Shown here: positions 6,012-39,159 of the stretch, piece by piece | Position numbering within the stretch: position 1 is the stretch's first letter | How the letters are laid out: each line of letters opens with the position of its first letter | Origin: Sphaeroforma arctica JP610 | Taxonomy: Eukaryota | Assembly: GCF_001186125.1 (NCBI RefSeq) | Contig: NW_014039728.1 | Location: 1-39,545 of the forward strand | Direction of reading: 5' to 3' | Length of the DNA stretch: 39,545 nt | Made by a program: the position numbers and the translations under genes | Notes under the pieces: generated by a model | Database searches by the model: none | Seen by the model: the letters and a program-made list of their open reading frames with translations, nothing else | What the model was told of the DNA's origin: nothing

Positions 6012-6182
6012 ACTGTGAATTCGCCAGGAGTAGCAGAACGTTACATGTTCACCAGGAGTAGCAGATCACTGCAAATTCACCAGGAGTAGCAGATCACTGC
6101 AAATTCACCAGGAGTAGCAGATCACTGCAAATTCGCCATGAGTGGCAGATCACTGCAAATTTACCTGAAGTAGCAGATCACT
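6012..6182. repeat. 28-bp tandem repeat (ACTGCAAATTCACCAGGAGTAGCAGATC), ~6 copies, between the convergent MYSM1-like and TIM44 3' ends
   Basis: Head-to-tail units with no spacers. The outer copies are degenerate. Confidence 0.9.
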
Positions 6183-6228
6183 CAGGAATCTGCTCGGATT
6201 CTATTTTAGCAGGTATCGCTTTATTGAT

Positions 6229-9931: not shown

Positions 9932-9952
9932 ATGATGAATAGAACTATCGTA

Positions 9953-10814
9953 ATGATCCCGCCATCACCCACGGTCTACATCCAGGGACTCAACGAAAAG
10001 ACTAAAAAGCAAGGTTTGTATGCGCAAGCATATGCATATAGATATATATATATATATATATATGGATATATGGATATACATGTGTGTGTTTGTATGTATG
10101 TATGTGTTTGTGTGTGTGCGTGTGTCACACTATATGTACATATGTGCATGTATATGTATGTGTATAGGTATAGGTATATATATGTGTGTGTATGAATATA
10201 TGTGCCTACGTACGTTTTATATATTAATATATATATATATATATTGTGTATACGTATATATATATATTGTGTATACGTATATATATATATATATATATAT
10301 ATTGTGTATATCTGTGTATATGTGTANNNNNNNNNNNNNNNNNNNNTACTTATTTTAGTGTGTGTGAATGGATGGGTGGGTGGGTAGATGTGCCTATTGT
10401 GTGTGTGAATGGATGGGTGGGTGGGTAGATGTGCCTATTGTGTGTGTGAATGGATGGGTGGGTGGGTAGATGTGCCTGTTGTGTGTGTTTATGGGTGTGT
10501 CTGTTGTGTGTGAGAGAGGGCGTGTCTGTTCTGTGTGTGACTGGAAAGGGTGAGTGAGTGGGTGAGTCTAGTGTTGTGTGTGTGAGGGCGCGTGTGTATC
10601 TGTGTCGTGTGTATATATGTATGTCTGTATAGTACTTGTACATGAACATGTATTTTTACATATACATATACATATGTGTGTAAATATGTATGTATGTATG
10701 CATTTATGAATGTTAGTGTATCTATGTATATGTATTCATTTTTATGTGTGGGTGAGAATGTGTGAATGTATCTATGTATGTATGTGCGTATGCACATATG
10801 TATCTGTGTGTGCC

Positions 10815-10846
<32 letters not shown>

Positions 10847-11662
10847 TGAATACACGACATAAGTGTTATTTTTCTACATAAATGCATATCTACCTATGTT
10901 TATATATATATATAAATATCTGTATATATGAATGTATATACATATATATATGTGTGTGTCTGTATGAATGTATGTATATATGTATATGTATGTACGTATG
11001 TATGTGTATATGCATATTCATATGTATATGTATATATATATATATATGTTTATATGTATGGATATATTTGTATTTATATCTATTTATATCTTCACATAGG
11101 AATGTATCATTTTTAAATCTGTTTGGATGTGTGAAAGATAAACACAAATGTATACCTATTCATATATATTTATATATTGAGTATTTTTGTATATATATAT
11201 ATATGTCCCAAGCATATCTATTGTATCTGGCTCTGTATGTGCGTGTTTTTTTGTCTGTGTGCGCACGCGTGTGTGTTTTTGGCTATGTATGTATGAATGT
11301 ATATATGTATATATGTATTTATGTATCATATGTATGTATTAGTATACGTATACATTCATGCTAACGTATATTTTTATATTTAATGTATGTGTGTGGTTGT
11401 GATGTGTTGTGTTTTGTTTGTATGTGTGTGCACACGTATGTGTTTTGTATGCGCTGTCCTATGCATGTGTTTCTATGCACACGTATATGTATATCTATAT
11501 CTATATAGCATACACATATTTATGCACGTACGCATGTATATGTTTATATGTATGAATATATATATGTGTGTGTGTGCGTGTGTGTGTGTGTGTGTGTATT
11601 TATATTGGTATTGGTATGGATACTGATATTGATATTGATATATATCTAAATTTAAATATATA

Positions 11663-11730
<68 letters not shown>

Positions 11731-14028
11731 GATAGATCGAAACATATATATATGTGTGTGTGTGTGTATGTATGTATGTATTGTGTGTAGTATGGGGTGG
11801 TTTTTGTTTCTGATGCGCAATAGTCTCTATATTATTAATTAGTTCTTTTCGTGGCTACGTACACAGGTACATTCATGTACAATGTCTGTCAATTGATAAA
11901 GAAAAATATTGGCATACTTCAATTCGTTGATATATATACTTTACTGTTGTTATAGCTTAGTATTCGCATGTGTGTATGTTGTTTCCTTCGCTCTAAACGA
12001 TGATCATCTTGGTTGTGATCAAGCTTGGCGTATACAACTGACAGTTATATTCAATTCGTAAATACACCTATATTGTCTACTTACAAACGCTGCAGAATGT
12101 TATATGTAGATATCGGATCCGGCTTCTTATACTAGTCGACTCGACATTTGTATTTGTCAACTGAGCATATTTATAATACCTTTATTTACTGGTCAGCGTA
12201 CTTTAGGGTGAACTGAGTGTAGTGTTTTATTTGCTTGTGAGTAGAATTATCGATGTCATCACATATTCATATTGAACTTATGTATATCATTATTTGTATC
12301 TCTCACTATACACATTCCTAGTGGCATATGAAAGAAAGTGACTCTTAGATTTTTCACTCGCAACGCATATAACTGCTCACAATACTGTTTTGCGCTGCCT
12401 CTGGACTCTGTCTGGTCCGCATTAGCATCCTTCGAATTGAATATGCAAGTTTCACAATAGTTTCCAATGCGGGTCTTCTCCGTGTTATAGTATGTGTGTT
12501 TTATGACATCAATGCGGGGCAAATTTTACCTGGATCGTATGATGGCCGTGCTCAAATATCTGCTATGTCTTTTTTTTTTTCCAACAGAGCTACGCCGCAC
12601 ACTGTATTCATTGTTTTCTCAGCATGGCCCAATTTTAGACGTTGTCGCTCTGAAGACGAAAAAGCTTCGTGGACAAGCGTGGGTTGTATTTAGAGATACT
12701 GCAAGTGCTATACGGGCAGTCTCGCAGCTCAACGGGTTTACCTTATATGACCGACAGATCGTAAGTTCGGTGTAGTCTGCACAGCTTCTCTAGGAAGTTG
12801 TCCGTTGTCCCGATAACTTATTTCATCGCGAAATTGAATCGTATTGCTACGCATTCTTTATTCTCTTATCAGATCTTCTAGGAAATTGCACAGAATACTT
12901 ATTTGTCGCGAAATTGAATCGTATCGTTGCTACGTGTATTTTATTCTCCGACGTCGTATTATTCGTGCATCTGGTGAGAAGGTCTTGGTTTTTATTAAAT
13001 AATATAGGTGTATTGTCTGAAGTATGAGAAAATAACTCTAGTCGTTGGCATCGAGTGACACAAGCAGCAACATATGGCAGTCAGCTATCGTGTATGCTGG
13101 TGATACTATATACCTCATCATCTGTTTTATCTCGTGCTGACTTTGTTCTCTTGATGTCATTTCTCCCTCTATAAAGCGGCTCAACTACTCAAGGAATAAA
13201 TCCAATGCCGTCGCTATCATGGATGGCACTTTTGGGAAGAAGACTACAAAGAAAGCAGGTTACACGAGTATAGGTAAATGTTAAACATAAGCTCGACGCG
13301 AAAGCAATGATTTACATCGTATTCCTGAGTCAGTCAGCGTGTTTAATAGAACGTACAGGTTCCGCAATGGGCCGGTGCTGGACAGAATTTGATATTAACT
13401 GTTTGTACGTTGAATTTTGGTTTATATGTATGTATATATGTGTGTGTATATATATGTCTTTATATGTCTATATATATATATATATATAATGTACTTATTT
13501 TCTCATCACCATCACCTTGATTCCCTTCCAAATTTATTTTTCAAATTTATGAAGTCAAAAGCGATAAAAATTTAGCGGACAAAGAGAAGGCACAAGCCAA
13601 GCCGAAGAATCCCGCATCAGGTAAATCGAGCATCCTTAAGGCGATGATAACATAGTTACTTTCGATGCTGCACGTTTTTACGAGACTAGCTCTCACACCA
13701 CTAACGGACTCGTGTTGTTCATTTAATCTGTTCATCAGGAAACCCGACATCCACGTCCACGCCAGCCATCGATGTAGATGAGAACCCACCGTACAGAATT
13801 CTGCTCGTCCTAAATTTGCCAGAGGAAACAACAGATGAAATGTTGAGGTATTTATTTGGTCAATTCCCTGGATTGAAGGATGTGCGAATGATTCCAAATC
13901 GGACTGACGTGTCTTTCGTTGAGTTCGAAGATGATGTAATGGCTGCTGCCGCAAAGACGGGGCTACAAGGATTTTTAATTAAGCCGGATCATCCTGGACT
14001 TGTTCTGACATTTGCAAAACAAGCATAA
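9953..14028 (+). CDS. SNRPB2: U2 snRNP B''/U1A (SNF)-family two-RRM protein; exons 9953-10013, 12588-12760, 13177-13258, 13555-13620, 13739-14028 (start could be 9932)
   Basis: RRM1 [52 protein letters not shown], where VALKT is the U2B''/SNF-type signature. RRM2 [47 protein letters not shown]...LTFAKQ. Frame-preserving GT..AG junctions. Confidence 0.88.
10020..11790. repeat. Microsatellite field (TA/TG/TATG) in intron 1 of the snRNP gene, including a 41-bp unit x3 (GTGTGTGTGAATGGATGGGTGGGTGGGTAGATGTGCCTATT, ~10358-10480) and an N gap
   Basis: Read directly. All ORFs here are low-complexity. Confidence 0.95.
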
Positions 14029-18300: not shown

Positions 18301-19089
18301 AAATCGCCATACAGAACTTTACGTATGGAGGCTATGCAATTATTTATTACTCTATTTTTGAGATGAATCCTTCTAAGTTTTTTCCGAAATGGAAAACTAT
18401 AAGGGACAAGATAAAGGCATATCAAAGCTACATACTGTTATTGAGCCATCTGCATGTTAAACTTTACTGAGCACGAAAACTCTCACAAGAAGCCTGTCGC
18501 TGGTGAAAGCATACATTGAAATGTACCCAGAAAATCGTCGAAATCACGGATTGGCAATCAAATCAATATCATTGTCGAGAGTGATTATGACAAAGCTATA
18601 TTATAGAATTGAGCATTCCCAACGAATTAGTTTATCGGCTGCAAGGTCTGAACTGCATAAAAGTGGCGGTTCAATACTAAAACCCAAACGCTAACAATAG
18701 TTAATACACTGTGTATATTGAACCTGTAATGCCCATTATATGAACTTGTCAATTATTAAAATTACACCGATTGAGTATTTATTTAGTGAAACTAGTAAAT
18801 ATATAGTAAAGTAAAATTGAATAATATCTCTCATAATTAAATACTACTGCCCGAACTCAGCAATGAGAGAAAAAGCAGAGTAATTTAGGTTTTAGAGATA
18901 TCGTAAAAACTAGAGTAGAGTTCATAGTAGTATAAGTAGAAGAGTAGAACGAGTGGAAATAAGGTCTAGACCCTAAACTGGGTTTTCCGAAAGAGACAGA
19001 GATAAAAACCGTCACAGATGCCATAAACTAGGTTTGACGTATTCTTACGTGTTAGAGGAAGATGATGAAGATTGATCGCGCATCAACAT

Positions 19090-22000
19090 GTCACACGTGT
19101 CGGACGAGCTAGGCTTTTGGTAAGTACGTCGGCATGATTGTTCTGTGTGGATATGTAGTGTAAGTCAGTCATTCCTTGACGTACATAATCTCGGATGTAG
19201 TGATGTCTTATGTCGATGTGTTTTAAGTCCTGTGGGTGTGCCTGTACCGAGTGCGATTTTGATCACACTCTAGTTATCGATGTGTAGTTTGGTAGGGAGT
19301 GTGAGTGTGTACCCGAAAGTATGCATGATGTAACGGAGCCACGCGATAGCACGCGTAGTTTTGGAGCCTGCTATATATTCAGCCTTGCCAGAGCTGATAG
19401 AAACAGTCTTTTGTTTTTGTGACCTCCAATAAACTGGGGTGTGGTCAAAACATATGAGTGTGCCAGTGTGTGATTTGCGTATGATGGGGCACGATGCCCA
19501 GTCAGAATCATTGTAGGATAGAAGTGTAAAATCGATTGATTGAGAATGTGTCTGTGGTCTGTATGTGAGAGCGACTTCGATAGTGCCCGCAAGATATTGT
19601 AGAATGCGGAGTAGGGCTGTGTAGTGTTCCTTGAGTGGTTGGTTGCTGAATGTAGCCAGTTGGCTAAGGAAGCAGACGATATCTACGCGTGTCATGTTGG
19701 CAGCGTAGTTGACTGCACCAAGGAGGCTACGGTATTTGCCAGAGAAGGGAGGCCCAGTAAAAGTGTTAGGGTGCAGTGTGGTACCAGGTGTCGGTTTAAT
19801 GGGGAAGTCGCGTGCTTAAAAACATCGGGCATTCGTTTAATGTAAGCATCCTGAAGGAGGGAGATGGAACTGTCAGACCGATGAATGATGCGGAAGCCAA
19901 CTTCATGGCGGGCCAGGCCAAGATTGGTGAGGAGGTAGTGGTTAAGAATATCAAAAAGCCAGAGGACATCGGCGAGAGATCGGACAGCAGGAAGTATTTC
20001 GTCAACATATATAATTAAGGCGAAGCGACGAGAAGCGTGGATCCAAATACACTTATCCGCTGCAGACTGGGTAAAGACAGCAAGATTGAGCTTATCACCA
20101 ATGTCGTGATTCCAAATGCGGCCAGCTTGCTTCAGGCCATAGAGGCCTCGACGGAGCTTAAGGACGATATTAGGGTGGTAATTGCCAAGATCACATGACC
20201 CCTTTGAGGGTTGCATATACACCAGAGTGTCAAGTTTACCATATATGAAAGCAGACGTCACGTCGCAAGTGGTAAACCTGGAGGCTATGAAAGGCAGCGA
20301 TGGCGAAGAAGATACAGAAAGCGGCGGCGTGAGCGGCGGGTGCATAGGTTTCCGTATAACTGTCACCATGCTCCTGTTGGTCGCCCCTAGCGACCATCCA
20401 AGCTTTGTAGTGGGAGAGATTGCCGTGTTCGGCATGCTTCAAGGCAAAAACATACTTACTATGGATGATTTTGGTGGAGGGGGGTACGGACGTAATAGGG
20501 ACCACTTCAGCTATTTCATTTGTAGCATGATTCTGGTATCGATGGCAGCCTTCCAGGACGGCCAAGAAGAAGATTTACGGGCGGAGGCGATAGACTTGGC
20601 TACAGTAGGGTCGAAGAGTGTGGCAGCTTTGGTAAGCGTCATATCAGAGCGGTTACTGGGGGTGACATTCCGAACATACGGGGTAAAGTAACATGGGGTG
20701 GATGCATATAGCGTATGGCAGGCCTGGAGGAATCGAACACAAGCAAATGTAGAGTCAGGTTCGGGTGGATCGTGGATTGTGGTGGTGAGGGGGAAATAGT
20801 TCGTGGGATTGAGAACGTCCGGAAGCGAACTGGGAGGGGATGGAAGGGGACCAGGACATGAGGGTTGATTGTGGGTGTCCGAGGGATGAGGGGGGGGACA
20901 CAGGAGGTGGGGCAAATGGCAGCAAGGGTTGGGAGGGGGGTAGAGGCGACCTATAGGGTGGACCAGGGGTACCAGGAAGGTGGGTTGGCGGATATGAAGC
21001 GTAGCGTAAGGGGCTGGTTATAACACCACGGGAGGTAGGCAGAGTAGTTGGGGGTGAGGATACCGGAGTTGGTGGGGGGCGCGAAGAGTAGAGGGGCGTG
21101 GGTTGAGGGGAAGGGGAAGATGCGAGTGATACCAGGAGGGTGTCTATGGGAAGATATTCCCACAGTACCGAAGGGGGTGTTGAGAAGGGTATGGGAACAG
21201 GGAGGAGTTCCACAGGGAGTGTCTCTTGGAGTACAGGGGGAATAGGGGAGAAGGGGATAGCGGCCGGAACAGACTCGGAGGGGAAGTCGACCTGGTGGAA
21301 AGTAGGCGGGGACCGAATAGCTGTGGAATCAAGGGCAGGATGATGGGTCTCCTGTTTGATGTCGGGGGAAAGAGTCGCATGCTGGGTGGTGGAGGGGAGA
21401 AAGGGACTGAGGCAGGGACCGTTTCAATCGGCAAGTGTTCCTGCTTAATGAGATAAGGAGGAGGTGCGAACTCGGACGGTGATGCATGTGGTGTGTGGAA
21501 CACGGGATCCGGTGGTGGAGTGGAGGAAGTGGCAGGTGTTGACTGAGAAGAAAAGTGGGCGTCAGTAGGTTTCGGCTCAATATCGTTGAGAGGGGAAGAA
21601 GTACTGGGGCCAGGTGGGATAGAAGGGGAACCAGCAAAGGGGGTAGGGTCGGTTGCAGAGCAGTTGGCGGGTATATGATAACTAAACGGGTGGGTGGAGC
21701 GAGTAGCTGTCTTGCCATCTGGGGATCATTGTGAGTTTTTCTCGGGGTAGAACTGTAAGTCCTGGGTCTTCATCAACATCTGAATAGTCATATTTCGGAT
21801 GATATATCAGTGTGGGGTGGAGTTAGTGCTGAAGCCAAGAAGAACACCATGGCCGATGGCTGGGAGATACTTGGGATGTCGTTTCGCTGCAGGGCCATGG
21901 AGTTTGAAAGCAACGACGCAGCCGAAACGAGCTCTTGGGTTGCACTTGGGGTCAATCTGGAGGAATGTGTGGTATGGAGTTCGGAGTGTCTCATCCTGAG

Positions 22001-23090
22001 CAAGCTTAGTGTTGCGGATGTAGTCCGCGAAGGACTTAGCATAGCCCCAAAGTAAGAGGGGCATCCCAGTTTCCATAAGCAGGACAAGGACAAAGTTATT
22101 GAGCGAGTCGTGCGGGCGTTCAACTTTGGCGTTTTGTTTGAGGGGAGTAAGGAGGGTGTGCATGGAGTTCGATGCGGCGAGACGTGAGCATGGACTTGAC
22201 CTGTTGGCTATGGAATATAGGGTCATTGTCGGCGATGATCGTACTAACGACCCATCGAGAAGGGACGCGAGTGAGGAGATCGTCGACATTGTGATGCATA
22301 GAAGCTTGGTGTGGGAGAAGAGCGTTAAGACCGAAGCGTGATCCCGCATCGAACATATTGAATGCATATTCGTTGCCATCACGGTCAGGTTGTAAGGGGC
22401 CTTGAAGATCAATATTAAAACGTTCGCCAGGGCCATATGGTGTGTTTGTGCTGGTATGACTGATACTAGTAGCATGGATCTTGCCAGTAATACATGTGTT
22501 GCAGTGCTTAGGGAATTTTGTGTTGGCTTGAATGTAATCGATCGCAGTGCAAAAGTCAGCAGATGGGGATACGTGAGAATGTATCGGTCCGAGGATTGTG
22601 ACCAGGGTGTAGAGCCAGGTGGGCGCTATCCGACAGCAGTAGACTTATGCCGAAGAAATGTTGAAGTAGTATTCTGGATAATATATTGCTGAGTCTGCTT
22701 GTGTGCGAGAAATATGTCCCACCACGGTGCACAAGGACTTTTCGCTAGTCGAGAGCAATTCCAGAGCCGTCGGGGGCAACTTATCGGGGCAATTGGTGCG
22801 AGTGCTTGGATGCACATATCAATAGTGGGCGAGGAGTCAAGAGCACTCATAGAGGCAGCGAAAAGAGAAGGGTGGATCATCCAGTCTTCGTTACTGACGT
22901 GATGAGGAGGTGAAAACATGAGTGTAATGCTTTCTTGGCGAGCCATACGGATTGTGGTACATTTGCTACGGTGTCCTGAGGAACAGTGATATGCGTCATA
23001 CGTCATCATGTTATCGGGAGGTTCAGGGCGGTGGTCACCAAGTTTGATTGGTTGCTGGGGTGGGAACTGGCAGCCCGTGAAGTTTGCGTA
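19090..23090 (-). mobile_element. Ty1/Copia retrotransposon pol remnant (integrase - Pro-rich linker - RT - RNase H), frameshifted and 5'-truncated, with a methyltransferase-like insert in the integrase Zn finger
   Basis: Integrase: HCSSGH...CNTC, FNIDLQGP, FDAGSRF, IADND, PYSPQ/QNAKVER. RT: YKAWMVARGDQQ...YTETYAP, DVTSAFIYG, LYGLKQAGRIWN, IIYVDE. RNase H: YNDSDWAS...RKSHTG...WRSQKQKTV...AEYIA, KHIDIRHHYIRD, NHADVLTK. INT-RT-RH order is diagnostic of Copia. Confidence 0.93.
22580..22890 (-). pseudogene. Decayed Dam-like N6-adenine methyltransferase domain within the Copia integrase
   Basis: EDWMIHPSLF...SPTIDM, then after a frameshift ASKHSHQLPR*VAPDGSGIALD*RK; the NPPx segment is absent; then APWWDIF...TFLRHKSTAVG*RPPGSTPW/VTILGPI. 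Colinear with the Gypsy methyltransferase at 33855 and 27720. Confidence 0.7.
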
Positions 23091-23162
23091 TACACAGACT
23101 TACACGAATACACATATCGGCACGAACAAGTTGTAGATAGATAGTTACCAGATATACACAAA

Positions 23163-24036
23163 TGTAAAAATAGCGAGTTCTTAATAGTTGCACAGTTAAC
23201 GTATATTGTAAACGTATTAGCGTATTAGCGTTTATACTTATAATACTTGAATACGTTTAACGAATTGGACATGAACAAGAACTGAGAGTACTCAGTAGAG
23301 TATGGGACTCTACTGTGGACAATTAGGTGGCTTTCCAAATATAGATTGGTTTTTCCACTGAAATTAGAATTGTACGTAATATAGGAACGACACCAATCTG
23401 ACACCTGAAAATGACACTTTAGGAATCTCTAATTAATGGAAGTACCATGCGAGAGGGTCTCAGGCATGAAATGGTTGTTGGTACAAACCTATGGTATAAT
23501 TCGATAATGACCTCAGAGCAAGATAATCCACTGAGAAAAGGACAGGATCAGAGTTGTTAGAATTTAGGACAACATGGTTTTGATTCCTCCTAGCCAGCCA
23601 ACTAGATGTGCCCTCTATGCCTTAAATGGGATGGGGAGCTAGGTACCAAGTGATGGGGTTTAGGTGCAGATGTATACTGCACCAGCTTGGTGTTTTGATT
23701 TTATTTTTTATTTTCTTAAGTTGGACTTAGAGGTATTTTATTGGTTAGTTCGATTAGGTAATTGTTTCGAGGCGTGAAATGTAAACTATGCGTCCAATGA
23801 AATGATATCTAGTCTTAGTGACTAAAACATAAATAAATCTAGACCGAAGTATTGAGCGATTAGAGCGGAGCATATAGACAATAGTCTCAGTCTAAAATCT
23901 CCTAATCTTTTGCTCATTACCAAGGGCTGAAGCTAAACTGATTTAACATTTTGCATTTTAACGTATTAACGTATTGTCTTATTAACGTAAACGTCTTGGT
24001 ATCGTATAGTCAGCCTAGAGGTGACCGACTTTAACA
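23163..24036 (+). repeat. Gypsy-1 5' LTR (TGTAAAA...TTTAACA)
   Basis: Near-identical to 30095-30963 apart from a few block indels. TG...CA termini. Confidence 0.92.
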
Positions 24037-24067
24037 TATTTTTAAGTTTAAATACGCTATCGATATT

Positions 24068-26848
24068 ATGACGAAAGGGAAAAATAAGGCAGCGAATGTA
24101 GCCAAGGCTGCAAACGCGAAAAGGTTTATTGTAGGCGAAGAAAAGCAGAAAACACCCCCGGCACCATCAGTAGAAGCTGAAGCAACTGAGATCACGCCGG
24201 TACAACCGGCACCAACTCTGACTAAACGCAAACATAAGAAGTTGGTTGACTCGGGTGTAGGTGCATCCGGAGGTAATGTGACTACGGAGCCATAGAAGCC
24301 ACCAGCGAAGAAGGCGAAATCTCGAAAGGGAAAAGCCGAGAAAACGCAATGCTCGGAAAACTTCAGAGGAAGTGCGACATGCACTGAAATCAGATGTATC
24401 ATCCCCACCAGTGGACACGCGCACAGCACGTAGGCAAGATCCTACTTATCATATGATAGCAAGGGATAGGAGAACCTTTCTGAAGAACTACCAACCAATG
24501 GTACATGAATTGAGACCTACTAAGCAGCGAAAAAAAAGCAAGCCGCAGCGAAGGATCAAGGTCATGGTGAATCAGGGGAGGATGACTCGGAAGATGTGCC
24601 AATAGCACAAACACTGTTGGATCAACCCCAAATCAACGTAGCGGAGGAACAACTGCGTTTCATGGATATAGGTCCGGATGATGTGGACCATACACTTCAC
24701 CATCAGGACGACGATTCGGACACTATGTTGGATTCACAATTCCTGCGCTTACCAAAACACCACTCCGACCGGCTTGGCGACAGAACTTTGATATGGGCCA
24801 TCCATACCAGACTCAGATTGATATCCAAGGGGAGGGTCAACAAGAGTTTATCCGTCAGCGGGCCAACCGGGCATGGGTGTTTCGAAACACGTATGGAACG
24901 TACTTTCCGGATGTAATGAAGGCCAACCCGGATGGTACAATCTCACCGAGTTATGTAATGAATGCAGCAGTAAGAAATTTTGGGCTCGATTTGTTTAGAG
25001 ATTCTAAATACTATAATCGGCTAGTAGCAATGAAAACTGACGAAGGTAAGCAGGCACGCAAACTTTTTCGCCGGTTTCAAAAGATACTACCGAAGGTATT
25101 TGGAACTAGGAGAGATGGAAGTTTTGCACACTTAATTTGGTACGCAATTCGGTATCTTCTTGGAGACATTCCCGACTTGATATCAAACCATTTGGCACTC
25201 TATCAAGCCATATTGGCGTTTGAGATGTTGTCAGACAATGGAGAGGCAAACAGAATCCGATCTTCTTCATCCGAAGCTCAATCTTTTCCTGGATTGGACG
25301 CAACAGTAATGTCGCGAATGGCATCTGAACAGGAGCCTAAACCAAATCCGCCACCGGAAGTAAATCCACAGAATGCCCCAGAGGTGTTTCCGAAGGAAAA
25401 ACCGACCAAAGAGCCTAAACCTGATCAGGTGGAAGCTAGAAAACCTTTGTCGTCATCGGGAGACAGTTCGCCCCCAGCGGCTATCCCAACGACGACAAAA
25501 GATGCTGTTCCATCAGAAGCGTTCATTCACATTGAACAGGTCGATGGATCAAAGGATGAGGCGGACAACTGACTGCATGGTCAGATGCAGTTAGAAAAGA
25601 AGGGATCAGATCACTCTAGTAGTGATCTGAAAACTGCTGAATTCATTGTTCGAATGAACAAGGCTGAGGCTGCTTCACTCGAGGCGATGGATCTAGGTAG
25701 GATTGATGCCGCTAGTCTTTATATGACAATGGCTACGCACTTCCAGACTAAGATTTATTCAGAACTAAGAGTGATTGTGGAAGGCAAGAAGTTTGTAAAG
25801 GACATAAGTAAACTACCGACGACATAAAGATCTGATCGAAAGGACCGGAAGGATCCAATCGATACTAGCAGTCTGGCGTTGTTGTCTAGGTCTTTGAAAG
25901 AGTTTGGACAAATTATGCTTACAGCCAATCTACGGAAGAACTTATGGTTCGAAGTAGTGCAGCAGAGCTTTAAGCCGTCCACTTACAAGTACAACAAGTA
26001 AGAGAAGGCAAAACAAGAAATCACTAAGCTGAAAACGTGGAAAGAGCAGAGTGAGATGATCGTCCACTTATTTTCGACGGACGACCGGAATTGCTTGTAT
26101 CGATCATAATACCACCGGACGAAGGAACGCCGGTGTCCCACTACTTATTAGAGTTGGACACACACATGTCAAGGGCACACAATCAGGAGATGTCACCTGA
26201 CAAACTATCCATGTGTGTACTATGGGTGCAGACAATCTTCTGGTCAAACCTACATAGGAGAGATCAAGAGATTCTGTACGCTGATATGCATCAATCTTAC
26301 CCGGACAAGGTACGAGAGATATCCATTGAAGGACCTACCTACGGCATAATGAAGCTAGCGGACTTAACCTGGGCTGAATTTTACTCGAGAGCGGATCAGA
26401 CGTTTACCAAACTCCCTAGTTCCGCCGTGAAAGTCACTAATGCTCAGAGGAAGGTCGGCGGCAATCTTACCGGGGAATCAGGCAATGGTCGAGACTCTCA
26501 GTCCACTAATGGAGGTCAGAAGGTAAACAAAAGGGGTGACAAAGGTGGCAATAAGAACAAAATACAAATAGTTCTGAAGGCCACAAGAACAATGTCATCA
26601 TTAAGGGTAACCAGACCAACAGAAATGGACCGCCGGCAGGCAACCCTAAGCCCAGGCATAGGGAGGTCAAGAACTGTAGTGAGATCGATTGCAATTGGCG
26701 AATGACCCAACATGAGCCGAATGGCAGATGGACTGGAAGGCACGCAGACAAGTGCAAGCACTTTATCGAGAAGTGTGCCGACTGTACCGGGACTGGAGGT
26801 TACCACAAGCATACATGCAAAGTGCAACCAAAGGTTGAAGTTAAGTGA
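24068..26848 (+). pseudogene. Gypsy-1 long ORF1/gag (~900 codons, disrupted) with N-terminal extension and C-terminal Cys/His fingers
   Basis: Consecutive ORF fragments 24068, 24372, 24596, 24793, 25585 and 26091 lie between the LTR and the protease. The C-terminus is CSEIDC-X16-HADKC...CADC-X6-HKHTC followed by TGA at 26846. Confidence 0.65.
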
Positions 26849-27720
26849 CAAACATACCGGGTCTTGTCACTAAGACAAAAAGACGCACCTCAGGACGAGC
26901 GTGTAATCCTAGATATACGAGTTAACGGACATGAAATAAAAGCGTTGCTGAATCCGGGCTCGCAAATTTCATGTATATCCTCTAGATTTTGTAAAATGAC
27001 AGACGTAACTCGTAAGTCAGAGCCAACTATGTTGAAACTGGCTGATGAAAGAGAGATCACTTGCAGAGAAATGGCAATCGATCTTAGGTTTACATTGACA
27101 GACCAACGTACTATAGTTACTAAGGCAGTCATATGTAACACTTCACCAGACTATGATCTCATAGTAGATATGAGTGATTTATTGTCATTAGGTATCACAA
27201 TTACAGGCTTACCTACTAACATTGAACCACAGAAGGATCAGTCGGACGACAACTTGTTGAAATCGGTATATAAACCTTCGAAGACTGTGAAGGAGATGAT
27301 CCCTCACTTCACAGAGAAACTCAAAGAAGTGATTTTCGAGAACGACAAGATTCGGATCACTGACTGTGCTAAGTTCAAATTCAATAACGGATACGTTAGT
27401 CTAGACCTGACGAGAGTAGATTTCTCGAAGCTGAAGTGTCCTACACGTAACTATGTTGCATGGCGTCATGAGCAAGTCGTACGATAACAGGTTAAAGTAT
27501 GGTTAGATGACGGAGTGATCGCAGTCAACTACGAGCCGACTCCCGTCAACCTAGCGCTTTTAGCCGTCGACCAATTCAACTCTGACGGGACGCTGAAGAA
27601 AGTTCGGGTGTGTTTGGATATGAGCCCAATTAACGCTTTGGTACCGACACACAATTTTCACTTACCAAGGATAAACGAACTACTAAGGCTCATGGAGGGA
27701 GCTAAGATAATCTCCACTAT
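26849..27720 (+). pseudogene. Gypsy-1 aspartic protease and N-terminal RT fragment
   Basis: IRVNGHEIKALLNPGSQISCIS (catalytic D>N), DYDLIVDMSDL and KVRVCLDMSPINAL...LPRINELL...GAKIISTI. Internal stop at 27485. Confidence 0.88.
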
Positions 27721-29797
27721 CGCCATGGCTATTAATACCACAGTTGCTAAATCATGTAAATATTCAAGATGCTACCATCACGTTGTGTTGTCCCCTAAGA
27801 CACTCAGATAAATGGCTACCACGGTTGATCTCAATGATACAATGTGAGCCGATCTATGTGGATAGAGAGGTAGATACTTTTCTTTACCAGAGTACCCGTG
27901 CAGTCCAAAAGACGCCTTGGCGACATACTATAATATGCCGAATAGGTCCAGTTGGAACGACCAAGTGGACACCATCCGAGACTTTCAAACAGAAGGTTGA
28001 GGAATCCAAGATTCCACTCTTGAATCCTATGTCTCAATCAGAGACTGGGACAACACAAGCACCTGCAGTATGTGTGATACAGCCAAATTTAAAGGAATCA
28101 AAGAGGAGCGCAACACTAGCGAAAGCCTTCTACAAAAAGATACGGTCTGACAGGGAAACTGCATACCAAGCAGAAACTCGATTGCTTAAGCAATTGATGA
28201 ATGACTTTCCTGAGGTATATGATCATGTGACTCAACTAATGGATAGATCAAATATTAGTCGGATTCACGATGTAGAAGCTTTAGGCGAGATTGGGCAAGA
28301 CGGGTCTTCGAGTCCAGGTGATGACGCGGTGGAATCCTCATCTCCTGATTTCAATGTAACAAGTAGATCACAGGAGGCGATTCTGAAGTGGTTAAGACAA
28401 AATCATGCTCTTAAGCACATTGATAAGGTTAGAACCGAGAAAGATTGCAAGAGGTACGGAATCGTACTCCCGAACCTCAAGCAATATATATCTCAGGTGT
28501 ATCACGAATGTAACAACTGCGAAGTTAACCGAATCAAGCGCCACGGATACGCACCTTTACGCAGCATATCAGAAGACGAGCCGTGGCGCCGGGCTATCAT
28601 TGATTTGGTTGAGCTACCCACGTCCGAACACACGAAGGATAAATATGTTTGTCACGTGTTTGATGTCGCATCAAGATATAATGTATTGTATCCGCTGAAA
28701 GATAAATCGACACAAACTGTGGCTGAGGGTATATATAAGTGCTTCGCAGATTTCGGCTGGCCAGCTATAGTATGTTCCGACAACGGTAGTGAGTTTACAG
28801 GAGATGTCATGACGACACTGTTACTCGTTGCGGGATCATGCCATAAGATGGGTGTACCTTACAAGCCTCAGACACGAGGTGCAAACGAGGTACGACACAG
28901 AAAGATGAAGGAGTTCATGCAAGGAGCACTACTTGATGATGCTGACATGTGGCCATACTCAATCAATTGGGTACAGACACAGATGAACGAATCCCTTGAT
29001 TCAGTCACTGGCACAACACCCGCTCACTATTTCCGGGGCCGTTATAGTGAATTACAGATCCCCTTCAACAAGGAGTCTCAAGATGATCATGTGTTACCAT
29101 GGTTAGAGACGATGCGTCGGACCAGAGATGTGGTCTATCCTTGCTTAAGGGAGATGAAGGACATCGCTCTCAAGAAGAGACAAAAGCGATGTAATGATAC
29201 CAAGAAAATTGTCGAGTTTGAGGTAGGCGATATAGTCAACATTATGGCTCGCAACTCCGATACAACTGAGCTTACGGCTAAATATATTGGACCATTTATG
29301 ATCTCTGTGGCCGATGAGAAGAGCGGAACGTATGAAGTTAACAACGTTGACGGCTCTAGTGCCTTAAATATTTTTTTTGGTCACATCGAATCCCTACGAC
29401 AGATGTCGTCTTTCGTCGCACACGTGAAGCTACTACACCTCTTATGTCTTACGAGTTTGAGAAGATTCTCAGGAAGTACAAACATGAGGATATGACATAT
29501 TACACTACGGAGTTCGCCGATGGAGCACAGTATGATCTTCCACCATCAGCATTTGATGATCCGGATGTACTAAAGACATTTAATAAGAAGTTTCGCAAAC
29601 GTTTACACAAAAATAGGGCTGATGCAGAATCAATCTTACCATCGAATAAGCGACCCGAAGTGGTTAAGATCTATCCACAGACATCATACATTCCCAGCTT
29701 TAAAGAGCATGGAATGTACGTACCTCCAAAAGGCATTAAGAAACGTCCCATCCACCATCGGGGACCACAAGGACCAAGCCCAAACGTAATAGAGTAA
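27720..29797 (+). pseudogene. Gypsy-1 methyltransferase C-half + linker + integrase + chromodomain-like tail (frameshift near 29375)
   Basis: PWLLIPQLLNHV...ITLCCPLRHSDKWL...KTPW; HALKH...CNNC; IIDLVEL, CSDNGSEF, GANEVRH; YIGPF; tail YEFEKILRKYKHEDMTYYTTEFADG...LPPSAFDDPDVLKTF. Confidence 0.88.
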
Positions 29798-30094
29798 CCG
29801 AGTAACTTATAACGGCTAAGTAAACTTTGTCTAAGAGAATATGACAAGCATTGAGGCCGTTATATGATCGAACCCCGTTTCTTTCCTTTTCGCTTGTACA
29901 ATTCATGTGAGCTTTTTGAGTCTATGTGCTAATACCACGTATAAGCCAACATTGTAATTTTCAAGCTGAGCGGGGGGGGGGGGGGGGGGGGGGGGGCGTA
30001 TGTAAAAATAGTCGGGTTCCTAATAGTAGTTGCACAGTTAACGTATTTCTAAAAATGTATAAGCGNNNNNNNNNNNNNNNNNNNNGGGGGGCTA

Positions 30095-30963
30095 TGTAAA
30101 AATAGCGGGTTCCTAATAGTAGTTGCACAGTTAACGTATTTCTAAAAATGTATAAGCGTATAAACGTTTATACTTATAATACTGGAATACGTTTAACGAA
30201 TTGGACACGAACAAGAACTGAGAAATTCAAGATTCTGAACATGTGACAGTACTCAGTAGGGTATGGGACTCTACTGTGGACAATTAGGTGGCTTTCCAAA
30301 TATAGATTGGGTTTTCCACTGAAATTAGAATTGTACATAGTATAGGAACGACACCAATCTGACACCTGACTGGGAGTACCATGAGAGAGGGTCTCAGGCA
30401 TGAAATGGTTGTTGGTACAAACCTATGGTATAATTCGCTAATGATCAAGATAATCCACTGAGATAAGGATAGGATCAGAGTTGTTAGAATTTAGGACAAA
30501 ATGGGTTTGATTCCTCCTAGCCAGCCAACTAGATGTGCCCGTCTATGCCATAAATGGGATGGGGAGCTAGGTACCAAGTGATGGGGTTTAGGTGCAGATG
30601 TATACTGCACCAGCTTGGTGTTTTGATTTTATTTTTTATTTTCTTAAGTTGGACTTAGAGGTATTTTATTGGTTAGTTCGATTAGGTAATTGTTTCGAGG
30701 CGTGAAATGTAAACTATGCGTCCAATGAAATGATATCTAGTCTTAGTGACTAAAACATAAATAAATCTAGACCGAAGTAGTGAGTGATTAGAGCGAAGCA
30801 TATAGACAATAGTCTCAGTCTAAAATCTCCTAATCTTTTGCTCATTACCAAGGGCTGAAGCTAAACTGATTTAACATTTTGCATTTAACGTATTAACGTA
30901 TTGTCTTTTAAACGTAAACGTATTGGTATCGTATAGTCAGCCTAGAAACGACCGACTTTTACA
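30095..30963 (+). repeat. Gypsy-1 3' LTR (TGTAAAA...TTTTACA), preceded by a G-run polypurine tract; its start is duplicated at 30001-30065 across an N gap
   Basis: Matches the 5' LTR. G25 at 29972-29996 and GGGGGG at 30086-30091. Confidence 0.92.
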
Positions 30964-31670
30964 CATACACATACACATCGGCGTACAACAGGTATAGTTA
31001 GATGGTTTCCATACATATACATCGGCATACACAAGTATAGTTAGATAGTCAAGAGAGTAAGACTAAGCACGGGTAATTCTGGTGCAAATTGGGGGTTTAA
31101 CATCATATGGCCGTGAAATTGGTACAGCGAACAGACACCTAACATTTGCGGCATACAAAGGTATAGTTAGATGGTTTCCATACATATACATCGGCATACA
31201 CAAGTATAGTTAGATAGTCAAGAGAGTAAGACCAAGCACGGGTAATTCTGGCGCAAATTGGGGGTTTAACATCATATGGCCGTGAAATTGGTACAGCGAA
31301 CAGACACCTAACATTTGCTACACATGTGACACTAAGAATATACAAGCAAATGGTGTCATTATTATCATTATATCATCCTATATCACAATAGTAAACAGCT
31401 ACCACACATACAACACTACAGGCATATACACAACACATACACTAGGCATATACAGGCCAACGGTGTCATGCAAGGTAATATCATCCCATATCACACAATA
31501 GTAAGCAGCTACTACACATACAACACTGTAGGCATATTAATAACGCTATCCCTATCAGTGTCAGCTGCATCTGAATGAGATGCATAAAAGGATACATCAG
31601 AACCAAATACACTACACTTACAACTAGGCATATACCAGCAAACGGTGTCATGCAAGGTATTATCATCCCG
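30964..31670. repeat. Complex satellite-like repeats: ~170-bp duplication (30990-31149 / 31160-31318) plus a second degenerate repeat (~31340-31670)
   Basis: Direct repeats visible. The same CATCGGCA..CAAG..TAG.TAGAT unit occurs left of Gypsy-1 at ~23105-23160. Confidence 0.8.
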
Positions 31671-33854
31671 TTTGCTTGAAGAAGTGCCAGACGTCAGATG
31701 ATAAACCTCATCAGACGCGTCCTAACCAGACACGTGCTCGCGACTCCACTCAATCCACTCGACCCAATAAACGGGCACGCGCGGAGGCGAAGGACAAGGA
31801 ATCTTCATTTAAGGAGATTTAGAAATGTGCCGACGCACAGTGCGGGTATGACATTTACCAATTGACCCCTAACGGTTATTGGAATGGCAGACATGCACTC
31901 ACCTGTTCACACTTTCTTACTAAGTGCGAAAAAAGCCCGACATTAAGTTGGAGTGAAAGTACTACCAGGTACAATCGTTACAAAGGAAATACAACGACTC
32001 TTTAGACGAGCGTGTAATAATACCTGTATATTGCAATGGAAATAAAGTCCTTGCATTGATTGATCCTGGTTCAGAAATTTCATGTATATCCGACCGCTTT
32101 GCATTAATGAAAGACATTGAAAGGCGAACTCAAACTTCTCACCTAATCTTAGCAGATGACAAAACTTCTAAGTGTGATACCATGGCCACAGATGTTAAAA
32201 TCTCCCTGGCCGATGATAGAAATATCACTACTCGAGCTGTGATAGTTCAGATGTCATAGAAGTACGACTTAATAGTCGGAATGAGTGTTTTACTCACTCT
32301 AGGTATAACCGTAACTGGTTTACCAAATAACATAGATCCATTAAAGGATCAATCAGATGATAACTGTCTGAAACCATATAAGCCCCTGTCAGACACAGTC
32401 AAGGCATTGATACCTGACTTTGCGGACAAAATCATGGATCTGATTTTAGTAAATAAGAAGATAAAGATCACAGATTGGGCAAAATTCCGCTTTAACGACG
32501 GATATGTCAGCCTTGACTTAACCAAGGTAGACTTTACTAAGATCAAGTGCCCTTCAAGAAACTATGTTTCTTGGAGACACGAAGCTGTAGTTAAAGAACA
32601 AGTTGAGAAATGGTTATCCGATGGGGTAATCGAAATCAATTACCAACAAACGCTAGCTAATTTAGCATTATTGGCAGTTGATCAACACAATTCTGACGGA
32701 ACATTTAAGAAAGTCAGAGTATGTCTAGATATGGGTCCAAAAAATAAGATATTGCCGACTCATAGTTTCCATCTCCCTCGTATAAACGAGTTACTGAGAC
32801 GAATGGAAGGTGCTACGGTGTTTACATCCATAGACCTAACACAGGGGTATCATCAAATGCAAATTTATGAACCCCATCGTAAGCACTTTAGTTTTACCTG
32901 GAAAGGTAAACAATACAGGTTCAGAGGTGCACCTTTCGGGTTGCACACCTTACCAGCATCCTTCCAACAAGTAATAGAGGAAATGTTTGCAGACATGCCT
33001 AACGTGCAAGTTTATATAGATGAAATAGTCGTCTTTTCTAAGACTAAAGGCGAACATGCCGCATTAGTCAGGCGAGTCCTTCAGAGACTCAGTGAACAAA
33101 ACTTCAATATAAACGAGAAGAAATGTCACTTCGCCATGAGCGAAATACAGCTCTTAGGCTACCGAATATCTGGGGAAGGTATTAAACTCGACCCCGGCAA
33201 GGTAGAACACCTGTTAGATTGGCGAACACCAACTACAGGAAGAGATGTTAACAGCATGTGTGAGGTTGTAAACTTCTTTTAAGATGGAGTACCACACTTG
33301 GCTGATTACCTTAAACCTTTTGGACACTTAAGATGTCATAAAGGCAAACTAGGAGACTTGTGAACTAAAGAGTGTGATGACACATTTAAAGCGCTCAAAC
33401 ACGAAGTCCAGCAAGCCCCTGTTGTACAAGGACCAGTCGATGGCGTGCCGTTTGAAATAGCAACGGACGCCTCCGACTTAGCCTTGAGAGGAGTATTATA
33501 TCAGGTTATAGATAACAAGCCTAGATATATACAATTATTTAGTCGAGCAATGAATGCTTCACAGTTGAATTATCCAACTGTTAAACAATAGCTATTAGCC
33601 ATAGTGGCAGCTCTAACACACTTCCGAGATTACTTATACGGAACAGCATTTACGCTGATGTGTGTGATCAGAAATCTCTTCAATATATGAAAGAGATGAA
33701 ACCCGACTCACAATTACTGAGTCGCTGGCATGATACAATATCAAAGTTTCATTTTGATATAATACATCTGCCAGGAATACATAACCATTTACCGGATATG
33801 TTATCACGCTTCGTACCGGACTTTAATAAATCCGTACGTGAGTTACTAACCACT

Positions 33855-34200
33855 GACTGGAAATGTAATCCCAGGTGGTTTGAACTGGCACAAAAGATAT
33901 TTGGGCCACATACCATAGATATGTTTGCTGCACATCATAATGCACAACTATCGAATTACAGGACTTTAAATCATCCTTTGGGAGACGCTTTTCAAATAGA
34001 CCTCTCCAAACATAATGCGTGGGCTAATCCACCATGGCAGTTAATTGCCCAGCTATTAAATTATGTTTGTATACATAAAGCTACCATCACGTTGTGTAGC
34101 CCATTACGGAGAAAAGATCCATGGCTCAATAAATTAATAAGCATCATACTATAGTATGTATAATATGTCGTATAGGTCCCATTGGAACAACCAAATGGAC
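33855..34200 (+). pseudogene. Phage-Dam/DIRS-type DNA N6-adenine methyltransferase-like domain, in frame with RNase H in the Gypsy-2 pol
   Basis: TDWKCNPRWFELAQKIFGPHTIDMFAAHHNAQLSNY...GDAFQIDLSKHNAWANPPWQLI...ITLCSPLRRKDPWL. DMFA (SAM-binding motif I-like) at 33918-33929 and NPPW (amino-MTase motif IV) at 34026-34037. Confidence 0.85.
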
Positions 34201-36571
34201 CCCTTCTGAGGCCTTTCTTAACAAGGTCAAAGAATCAGAGATTCCACTCTCGACTAAATTGAACGTTAAGCAGTTCAAAGGCAACACAGCACTTGAAGTC
34301 TGTGCATAAGAAATACAACCTACTAATGACACTACAGTTAAGAAGCGTCAGTCTCTAGCTAGGACTCTATTTAATAACATAAAGTCCAAGCCCGAGGTCT
34401 TTCAACCCCAATTTTTAAAGGGATTAATGAAAGATAATCCTGAAGCATATACACATACAATGCGACTATTAAATAAGTCAAGTGTATCAAACGCACACGA
34501 GCGCACTTATGACACTCATGCGAAAGTAGGACAGGAGGCTGGAAACACTACAGACTTAGAGACCACGCAAGTGGATTCTCAACACCCTACCTTTATTCTG
34601 GAGGAGCAGAATGATAAAAACATTCTTGCTTGGCTGACGTAAAATCATATGCTGAAGCACCAGAACGTAGTAGACGCACTTGAAGATGCTAAGCGAAATG
34701 GGATCGCGCACCATAAGCTGGCAACTTTAGTTGACAGAGTATATCAGTCATGTACAGACTGTGATATCAACCAGATTTAGCGCTTTGAGTTCGCACCGCC
34801 TAAGAGTGTGACTGAAGATGTTTCAGGCGCAGGGTCATCATTGATCTGGTTGACCTGCCTACGTCCGATCACAGTATAACTTGCTCTATCCTTTAAAGGA
34901 CAAGAGTACGCAGACCGTGGCAGAATTATGTTGCCAAGTCTTTGCTGACCACGGGTGGCCAGGTATAATGTGCACTGATAACGGTAGCGAGTTCTGCGAT
35001 GACGTAATGGAATCGTTAGTACTCGTATCAGGCATGTGCCATAAAAGGGGTGTACCATATAAACCGCAAACACAAGGCGCGAATGAAACGCGCCATAGAA
35101 GACCTAAGTTCTTCTTACGTACTGTATTAACGGATGATGCAGATGATTGGCCGTACCACCTTAAGTGGGTACAAACACAGATGACCGAGTGTGCTGATCT
35201 GGTTACAGGTACAACACCCACTCACTATTTTCGTGGCAGATATAGTGAGTTACAGATACCTTTTAACAAGGACGAGCCTAATCACCATGAGTTACCATGG
35301 CTAGAGAAGGTACAACGTATTTATAACGTTGTATATCCTTGCTTGTGAGAAACACGCAATATTGCCTTTTTGAAAAGGCAAAATAGATGGAATGCTACCA
35401 AAAAGATAGCAGAGTATCAGGTTGGAGACAGAGTTAACATCCGTTAACGTAATTCCGATGCTACTGTATTAAAATCTAAATGGATAGGACCATATATAAT
35501 CTTTGTAGCTGACGTTAAAAGTGGTACCAATGTTGATAATAACCCCGACGGTTCCAGCGCTTTAAATATAGGCACTAGTCGGATTCCGACTACCGAGATT
35601 ATTCTCGCAAGAAGACATGACTCTAATGCCCCTCTGGATCGTTCTGGATTTAAAGACATTATATGGAGAACGGATAATGGAGGATATACATACTATCATA
35701 CACGCTTTATAGTCGGTACAATCACTGAGTTGACTCCAGATGNNNNNNNNNNNNNNNNNNNNNNNNNNNNNNNNNNNNNNNNNNNNNNNNNNNNNNNNNN
35801 NNNNNNNNNNNNNNNNNNNNNNNNNNNNNNNNNNNNNNNNNNNNNNNNNNNNNNNNNNNNNNNNNNNNNNNNNNNNNNNNNNNNNNNNNNNNNNNNNNNN
35901 NNNNNNNNNNNNNNNNNNNNNNNNNNNNNNNNNNNNNNNNNNNNNNNNNNNNNNNNNNNNNNNNNNNNNNNNNNNNNNNNNNNNNNNNNNNNNNNNNNNN
36001 NNNNNNNNNNNNNNNNNNNNNNNNNNNNNNNNNNNNNNNNNNNNNNNNNNNNNNNNNNNNNNNNNNNNNNNNNNNNNNNNNNNNNNNNNNNNNNNNNNNN
36101 NNNNNNNNNNNNNNNNNNNNNNNNNNNNNNNNNNNNNNNNNNNNNNNNNNNNNNNNNNNNNNNNNNNNNNNNNNNNNNNNNNNNNNNNNNNNNNNNNNNN
36201 NNNNNNNNNNNNNNNNNNNNNNNNNNNNNNNNNNNNNNNNNNNNNNNNNNNNNNNNNNNNNNNNNNNNNNNNNNNNNNNNNNNNNNNNNNNNNNNNNNNN
36301 NNNNNNNNNNNNNNNNNNNNNNNNNNNNNNNNNNNNNNNNNNNNNNNNNNNNNNNNNNNNNNNNNNNNNNNNNNNNNNNNNNNNNNNNNNNNNNNNNNNN
36401 NNNNNNNNNNNNNNNNNNNNNNNNNNNNNNNNNNNNNNNNNNCCTGAGAAACATTAACTATATGTTATGCTACTTAATGTTTTCGACACGTTTTTCCTTT
36501 CTCGCTTTTTGACCCATAATCAGCTTGAGTGAGCAACTTGCTTCTCCTGGGTCTCAACGCTGGGTGGGGGC

Positions 36572-37337: not shown

Positions 37338-39159
37338 ATGATTGGTTCAAAATTTGAATCTATAGATTTACCAATCAATATAGTTCAAAAAATATATTTT
37401 AGTGGTTGAAAATTTGGATCTATAGATATGCCAATCAATATAGAATTGAAAACTAAGTTTATTGGTTAATAATTTAGATCCGTTGTACGATGACGAATAC
37501 ACAGTATATTCTTGATTCTGATTGGTTATTAGGAAACTGTCTGTTGTTTTGGCTAGTACAGTCACTGCAGTGTGTAGCACTTCACTTTCAGACTGTGGGG
37601 AAATTTGAGGTGGGTCACCAATTAGATTGGATAATTAATTTGCTACACAACACAAAAAACAATATATTTTGTCCTGTTTTGTCTTTGACAATAAAAAACA
37701 AATAATTGAAAAAACAAGGGTATGTAAAACACTAATAATGCTTGTCAAGGACAAATAAACTAGAGTAGGGTTCATAGTAGTAGGAGCAGAAGAGTAGAAC
37801 GAGTAGAAATAAGGTCTAAAACCCATTGTGCTGAACGAGCCCAATTTTTATATATAAGGAAATACTCTAAATGTACATGGCTTACATGGGATAGTCCCTA
37901 ATGTACATACAGATTTACGTGTACGTATTCCTTTCTCAGCCTTATTTCAAATAAAATTTAAAAAGCATAGCCTTTTAAATTATACAAGCCAAGGCACCCT
38001 TTGCGGGACTGGATTTTTTGGTTCCGGTACCGGCTAAAAAAATTGATGACGCGAATTTCAAAACTTGCTACTTGGTTAAATTGTTACCACCACACAAACA
38101 TACAATAAAGAAGGTCAATTTGGACAACAATATTCGTTTATTAGTGTGGCCTGTACTCGTTGCGTGGCCACGTGTTACCAACCTGTGCCTTAGAAATACA
38201 GTGTTAATCGGTCGCTAACGCAGCCACTATCACATCATATGCAACTCGTGCCAAGGGATCGAGGAGGGCCCGCGCGATGCTTTCTACTATTTCAATCTTC
38301 GATGCTAGAGCAAGTTCCAATTGAATGCAGTATCGTCTAGCATCATCCATGCTTAGTCCCAAGACACTTCCCAGGCCAACCTTCTGAAGAGCAGCAAGCA
38401 GAGTGCAACGCTGCCTCGACTGATTCACAGTACCACCAAGTGGCGCCTCCAGTCCATATACCGCTGTTCTCCGATGTAAACATCGTCCCCTCCGAGCAGG
38501 TAAGAGAGGTAGGCTGCCTTTTTTCTTTGCTAGTTTTGACCATACTAAGGATAAATACGGTGGCTGCGTGTTTTCTACTAAGCAGCATAGACATTTTTTA
38601 CAGGCAATGTTATCCTCGCAGGGTATAAGTGCTGTGAGCGATGGTGTGTATATGCGTAGTAAATTTTGTGTCGTTTATTATGTATACTGGGTATTTTCAA
38701 AGGTTAAAAATTTGTAAAATTTGAGGACTAATTAAAAACAACATTAAAGAGTCATTCTGATTGGATAACGAACAAGCATGGTGAGTTTTCGACACTTGAC
38801 ATCTGATGTTTTTTTGTTTTGTGTTCGAATGAATATACACAAAAAACACAAAATGACAAGAGTATACAAAAAAAATTAAAAATTACAAATATAACTAAAT
38901 TTGTACTACGTAGTATGTATATGTACTAGTTTTAGACTTATTTAGTACTTAAGAAGTAGTGAGAGAGTTTCAAGGGTAGTGAGTACGTCGGGTCTACATA
39001 TACTATATGATGTGGCAATTAGAGAGAGGGATGAGAATGCAGGCGGGTCAATATCGAATGCACGATCGGATGGTGGTGGTGGTGCGCTTGGAGAGAGGGA
39101 TGAGAATGGGGGTGGTGCATCACGATCGAATGCACGATCGAATGCAGATGTAGCTCTCA

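Follow-up and report, generated by a model that had tools for sequence, protein, structure and literature searches.

Five lineages of LTR retrotransposons with a Dam-type domain (DAM-LTRs) have been defined, one of them ichthyosporean with elements from Pirum gemmata, from Abeoforma whisleri and from Sphaeroforma arctica (Fernandez-Moreno et al., bioRxiv 10.64898/2026.05.21.726589). According to this preprint, the ichthyosporean lineage has a Ty3/Gypsy organisation without a chromodomain, and no DAM-LTRs occur in Metazoa. In S. arctica and A. whisleri, DAM-LTRs had more copies marked with N6-methyladenine (6mA) and a higher expression than other LTRs. It was proposed that RNA-DNA intermediates are methylated and that AMT1 then maintains the mark. 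Representative domains expressed in dam-minus E. coli showed no activity, and the main text makes no mention of PCIF1 or CAPAM (bioRxiv 10.64898/2026.05.21.726589). The methyltransferase domain of DIRS elements (PF05869) was known earlier (excerpts of PMC3783388 and PMC5890265), and the DIRS1 methyltransferases were placed in the PCIF1 clade and judged likely inactive (Iyer et al. 2016, excerpt of PMC4738411). Titles and abstract openings yielded no further literature on LTR-borne Dam domains. The kind of element reported here is already known in S. arctica. The possible novelty raised in a preliminary description of the locus was not upheld, as the lineage had been defined in this species together with the same model of 6mA mimicry (bioRxiv 10.64898/2026.05.21.726589).

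The window is a stretch of 39,545 nucleotides. A TIM44 exon at 7203-7685 was 100% identical to SARC_08803 of Sphaeroforma arctica and indicates an ichthyosporean host. This match ruled out an animal host, which the AT-rich microsatellites had suggested and which would have run counter to the lack of DAM-LTRs in Metazoa according to the preprint. Three host genes were recognized, coding for a Myb-domain protein (3117-3806, +), TIM44 (6675-8475, -) and a two-RRM protein (9887-14028, +), which we take to resemble U1A/U2B''. A 28-bp tandem repeat lies at 6012-6207, and ARAGORN detected no tRNA genes in the window. The entire retroelement cluster is flanked by a 62-bp repeat pair (18907-18968 and 37757-37818) with 92% identity. 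A decayed Ty1/Copia element on the minus strand (19270-23099; RVT_2 E 2e-16, rve E 5e-5) stands head to head with the 5' LTR of a Gypsy element at 23162-30966, called element 1. The flagged Gypsy element, called element 2, spans about 31811-35742. The non-coding stretch between the two (30967-31700) contains a 169-bp tandem duplication and shorter sub-repeats, and no match to gag or to the LTRs was found in it.

Sequence and profile evidence placed a Dam-like methyltransferase domain between RNase H and integrase of the element 2 pol. The features of element 2 were as follows, with the limits of reverse transcriptase (RT) and RNase H mapped from the intact relative P0002:

31811-31927, plus strand: what is left of the gag C-terminus; 39 amino acids align with element 1 at 44% identity
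31972-32259, plus strand: aspartic protease, terminated by a stop codon at 32257
32590-33295, plus strand: reverse transcriptase of the Ty3/Gypsy type with the active-site motif YIDE and a stop at 33280
33415-33815, plus strand: RNase H with a stop at 33589 and a frameshift near 33659
33858-34148, plus strand: Dam-like (PF05869) methyltransferase, N-terminal two thirds, in the RNase H frame (from translation and profiles)
33858-33881, plus strand: motif WKCNPRWF
33915-33932, plus strand: motif IDMFAA, with D, F and A each at least 90% conserved in alignment A1
33936-33950, plus strand: motif HNAQL
33984-33992, plus strand: motif DAF, with A at least 90% conserved in A1
34020-34037, plus strand: WANPPW, of the catalytic motif IV type (NPP and an aromatic residue), unbroken
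34086-34103, plus strand: motif ITLCSP
34116-34127, plus strand: motif DPWL
34150-34158, plus strand: scar of a net 79-nt deletion within the methyltransferase, shifting the frame (from comparison with element 1 and loose contig ends)
34159-34200, plus strand: last methyltransferase strand (IICRIGP), now out of the original frame
34643-35741, plus strand: zinc-finger region plus DDE integrase, carrying stops and frameshifts; a 700-N gap at 35743 interrupts it

Three-frame translation showed the frame that opens at 33585 to be free of stops from the end of RNase H (NHLPDMLSR) on into the methyltransferase domain, in which IDMFAA presumably represents the SAM-binding motif I. Translation and profile matches thus bore out the position of the domain, its frame and the motifs listed in the preliminary description. 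The domain was 63-69% identical to those of the intact relatives P0001 and P0002. It matched Pfam Dam PF05869 with an E-value of 6e-6, its 26.5 bits lying just under the curated cut-off of 28.1; the same stretch of intact P0002 cleared the cut-off with 31.2 bits, and A. whisleri proteins reached 40-44 bits. Further matches were to the DNA methyltransferase family phrog_111 (E 3.5e-5) and to the phage N6A methyltransferase model TIGR01712 (E 2.5e-4, far under its cut-off). The assignment to Ty3/Gypsy was supported by yeast Ty3 as the best solved relative of the RT (E 2e-32) and by the RT tree.

Element 2 is a dead, fragmentary copy that cannot make the enzyme. Its pol contains nine in-frame stops, counted in the frames matching the intact relatives, plus several frameshifts. 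Between anchors common to both elements there are 88 nt in element 1 and 9 nt in element 2, a net loss of 79 nt at about 34150, and loose ends of contigs from other copies at 34149 and 34159 flank the stretch absent from element 2. The integrase core was 54-60% identical to P0001 and P0002 and matched rve below the cut-off (E 0.0017). The element is 5' truncated and its 3' end lies at the N gap; no LTR was found, and upstream of the gag remnant there was no match to the remaining gag of element 1.

The upstream copy has retained its LTRs:

23162-24039, plus strand: 5' LTR of element 1, TG...CA
27723-27960, plus strand: C-terminal half of the methyltransferase of element 1, straight after an internal-deletion junction
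30096-30966, plus strand: 3' LTR of element 1, with a poly-G tract upstream

The two LTRs matched in 805 of 841 aligned bases, with a further 67 gap columns. No target-site duplication was seen by eye. The preliminary description had noted that this copy carries the same domain from PW onward. The domain is indeed present from 27723, with 67-70% identity to P0001 and P0002, but as a half-domain owed to an internal deletion. The deletion joins the start of the RT (P0001 residue 295) to residue 696 and removed most of the RT, all of RNase H and the first half of the domain including the NP of the catalytic motif. On its own, the piece 27723-27995 gave no match in profile searches. Element 1 is as unable as element 2 to make the enzyme. 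A tRNA primer-binding site after the 5' LTR is expected to begin with TGG. The bases that follow the 5' LTR here (24040-24062) are without this start; unusual priming or decay of the site may account for this. At 29991-30158 the start of the 3' LTR, some 70 bases, is present twice, once on each side of a 20-N gap (97% identical), probably an assembly artefact. Dinucleotide and GATC counts contained no clear target signal, with GATC at 1.47 of expected in element 1 and 1.03 in element 2 and ApT at 1.0 in both.

A search for longer proteins returned two matches among 135 candidates, P0001 (1400 aa) and P0002 (1376 aa), which are 69% identical to each other. Both contain protease, RT, RNase H, Dam and integrase in this order in a single ORF. 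Between them, identity was 67% in the domain (88/132), 61% in the RT, 72% in RNase H, 57% in the integrase core and 30% in the linker after the domain. No Chromo match was obtained in full-length P0001 and P0002 (E 0.01) or in the tail of element 1 (E 0.1); the end of element 2 is hidden by the N gap.

Contigs from four runs, which may share one strain, were aligned to 33200-34500. Run X1 contributed 10,363 records, and no listed piece covers the whole region. Thousands of contig records cover the domain. At all four in-frame stops of the region (33280, 33361, 33589 and 34307), at least 99% of the summed X1 depth, which is not a copy number, had another letter. Together with the loose ends at 34149 and 34159, this indicates that the breaks are confined to element 2 or to a small minority of copies. 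The selection on the domain was gauged from variants among the family contigs at a threshold of 2%. Twenty-seven variant rows lay above it, six of them near-fixed differences from the window and 21 segregating. Twelve of the 21 segregating variants were synonymous, compared with 176 of 873 possible changes (20%; binomial P 2e-4, with linked rows treated as independent, two of them in one codon, and transition bias ignored). The segregating variants spared D, F and A of the first motif as well as NPP, and one row (2%) was a stop at the W after NPP. The comparison of elements 1 and 2 over 39 domain codons (12 synonymous and 13 non-synonymous codons) was given no weight because it is too short and mixed with post-insertion decay. 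Within the family, purifying selection acts on the domain, and intact P0001 and P0002 share its place in the domain order; it is a family trait, as had been suggested, and not a one-off insertion. The family is abundant in S. arctica and consists of Ty3/Gypsy elements with a conserved PF05869-type domain in pol.

A HMMER search over 1.84 billion representatives gave 699 matches at E 0.001. Among the best 150 of them, the first three after P0002 were Abeoforma whisleri proteins with 49-50% identity. Thirty-nine of the 150 were scanned against Pfam, and domains were mapped on every match longer than 330 aa. The mapped relatives exhibited two architectures. The LTR type has a Ty3-like RT and RNase H and usually an integrase downstream of the domain; P0009, P0011 and P0012 show no integrase and were called LTR type by RT/RNase H similarity. 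In the DIRS-like type, labelled from architecture alone, the RT is distant and the ORF ends with the domain. In the tree of the domain (58 rows, short matches excluded), the window grouped with P0001 and P0002 (100/99) within a 13-row group (100/97) that also held the A. whisleri proteins P0008-P0010 and seven further proteins. One DIRS-like row fell among the LTR rows. The RT tree (45 rows) split the LTR type from the DIRS-like type at 100/100 and placed the window, P0001, P0002 and the A. whisleri proteins in a corresponding 10-row group (96/94). Both trees would fit a capture of the domain from DIRS followed by co-inheritance; being unrooted and with bootstraps not yet settled, they give no direction. 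The kinship with the domain of DIRS-like elements, which had been proposed from motifs, was supported by the homologue search, the Pfam scans and the domain tree. A nested DIRS insertion or a chance match was ruled out by the intact relatives P0001 and P0002 and by the RT tree. P0011, P0012, P0014, P0016, P0017, P0018 and P0025 fell into the ichthyosporean domain group; they may come from unsampled ichthyosporeans or from another host group. In the chromodomain LTR polyproteins P0013, P0022, P0034 and P0135, too, the domain lies between RNase H and integrase.

The domain of P0002 (residues 575-735) was modelled from an 87-row alignment with a pLDDT of 94 and a pTM of 0.89. Among viral models, the best named matches were phage N6-adenine DNA methyltransferases (E 5e-9 to 3e-7, TM 0.67-0.72). 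Among solved structures PCIF1/CAPAM came first, with a Foldseek E of 1e-4 and a TM of 0.63 and, in VIA-align, a Z of 10.1 at an rmsd of 3.0 over 137 aligned residues; it occupied the first six places of the Foldseek PDB search and the first place in VIA-align. Behind it, VIA-align listed DIMT1/KsgA/Erm (Z 7.4-8.5), M.TaqI (7.5), E. coli Dam (7.4) and T4 Dam (7.3). Sequence searches of solved structures returned no match with the window domain (E 10) or with profile A1 (E 1), and the fold link therefore rests on structure search. Within the 87-member alignment, 72 members matched Pfam Dam and ten matched PCIF1_WW. The model, made for the domain of an intact relative and not for that of the broken copy, agreed with the Rossmann methyltransferase fold anticipated for the domain. 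The predicted fold is that of a Rossmann amino-methyltransferase not especially near E. coli GATC Dam, and it does not fix the substrate.

What is established here with near certainty is the order of domains, the sequence family, the predicted fold, the purifying selection, the host species and the decay of element 2. Concerning the function of the domain, we lean modestly towards the reading that in intact copies it deposits N6-methyladenine on the product of the element's own reverse transcription. The domain would have been acquired from a DIRS-like element and would enter the virus-like particle together with RT, RNase H and integrase, where it may methylate adenines of the nascent cDNA or of the RNA:DNA hybrid. 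In the model of the preprint, host AMT1 would then keep the 6mA mark, so that the new insertion resembles active chromatin and gains 6mA-linked expression. This reading is supported by the intact one-ORF relatives, the conservation of the domain, the synonymous excess, the well-modelled fold (pLDDT 94), the phage matches and the concordant trees, and further by the larger share of 6mA-marked copies and the higher expression of DAM-LTRs in the preprint. It is weakened by the negative E. coli assay, the view of Iyer et al. (2016), the motif variants CPPW, HPPW and NIPF and the position of PCIF1 as nearest solved fold. The 6mA enrichment on the elements could also stem from transcription and host AMT1 rather than from an enzyme of the element.

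A less probable but still considerable alternative is that the domain is kept as a non-catalytic module, which binds SAM or nucleic acid or helps to fold or place the polyprotein, while the 6mA comes from host AMT1. The negative assay in dam-minus E. coli (bioRxiv 10.64898/2026.05.21.726589) would be expected of such a module, and in the excerpt of Iyer et al. 2016 (PMC4738411) the DIRS1 domains were deemed likely inactive. Altered forms of motif IV occur in full-length relatives whose domain is otherwise conserved, namely CPPW in P0001, where the rest of the domain is 67% conserved, HPPW in P0034 and NIPF in P0013. These three proteins are useful natural controls for catalysis. The catalytic motif is nonetheless widely retained: in A1, 14 of the 16 LTR-type rows covering the position have kept the N of NPP, as have 61 of the 70 other rows, and NPP showed no segregating change among the family contigs.

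Rather unlikely, and behind the non-catalytic module, is an active domain that, in the manner of PCIF1/CAPAM, targets RNA instead of double-stranded DNA, be it the transcript of the element, its cap or, within the hybrid in the virus-like particle, the RNA strand alone. Such a substrate would account for a strong conservation alongside a negative assay on E. coli DNA. It would also agree with the first rank of PCIF1/CAPAM in both structure searches, the PCIF1_WW matches of 10 of the 87 alignment members and the assignment of the DIRS1 domains to the PCIF1 clade in the excerpt of Iyer et al. 2016 (PMC4738411). However, phage DNA methyltransferase models matched far better than PCIF1-like proteins (E 5e-9 against 6e-5), Pfam Dam was matched by 72 of the 87 members, and the structural alignment covers about 140 of the 480 residues of PCIF1. 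PCIF1 may moreover lead by default because the Foldseek pdb search listed no closer phage-type structure. A match arising by accident at this locus, whether through a nested DIRS fragment, through misassembly or as a neutral relic, would suit two broken copies, N gaps at 30066 and 35743 and a Pfam score just under the cut-off, but is very improbable in view of the identical domain order in intact independent proteins, an RT that falls with the LTR type apart from the DIRS-like rows at 100/100, the thousands of covering contig records from other runs and the synonymous excess.

The architecture is a real and striking case of a retrotransposon with its own putative epigenetic enzyme, and it has already been described for S. 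arctica. Element 2 contributes confirmation only, in the position of the domain between RNase H and integrase, the selection on the domain and the PCIF1-like fold. If 6mA is placed on the cDNA by the enzyme, this illustrates how hosts that use 6mA can take a transposon for an active gene. An inert domain, or one with RNA as its substrate, would require the current model to be revised. A true RNA activity would mean an RNA-modifying enzyme carried by a retrotransposon, and the abundant S. arctica family is suited to testing this.

With the ichthyosporean DAM-LTR lineage the elements share the host species, the Ty3/Gypsy organisation, the absence of a chromodomain (in P0001 and P0002), a Dam domain with NPP and the grouping with A. 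whisleri. No difference was found from the main text of the preprint, which leaves the position of the domain in this lineage unstated. DIRS elements have in common with element 2 the domain family and its site directly after RNase H (excerpts of PMC3783388 and PMC4738411). In the DIRS pol, as given in the excerpted sources, protease and DDE integrase are lacking and a tyrosine recombinase is used; the flagged element has both of the former and an RT of the Ty3 type, and direct LTRs are present in element 1. An identification of the element as a DIRS retrotransposon was ruled out by the protease and rve domains and by an RT apart from the DIRS-like rows at 100/100.

The phage enzymes of the TIGR01712, PF05869 and phrog_111 families share the motif order of D-x-F-A followed by NPP and an aromatic residue and were the best structural matches among viral models. 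Identity to the phage N6-adenine methyltransferases was 15-22%, and the domain is here embedded in a retroelement polyprotein. PCIF1/CAPAM, a cellular enzyme that acts on RNA as a cap-specific adenosine methyltransferase, is the nearest solved fold, but with 12-16% identity and over the core only. KnitGypsy-Dnmt3 of Klebsormidium nitens is likewise a Gypsy pol with a DNA methyltransferase under purifying selection; according to the same excerpt, its enzyme is a C5-cytosine DNMT and as such unrelated to the amino-methyltransferase of the S. arctica elements (PMC5890265).
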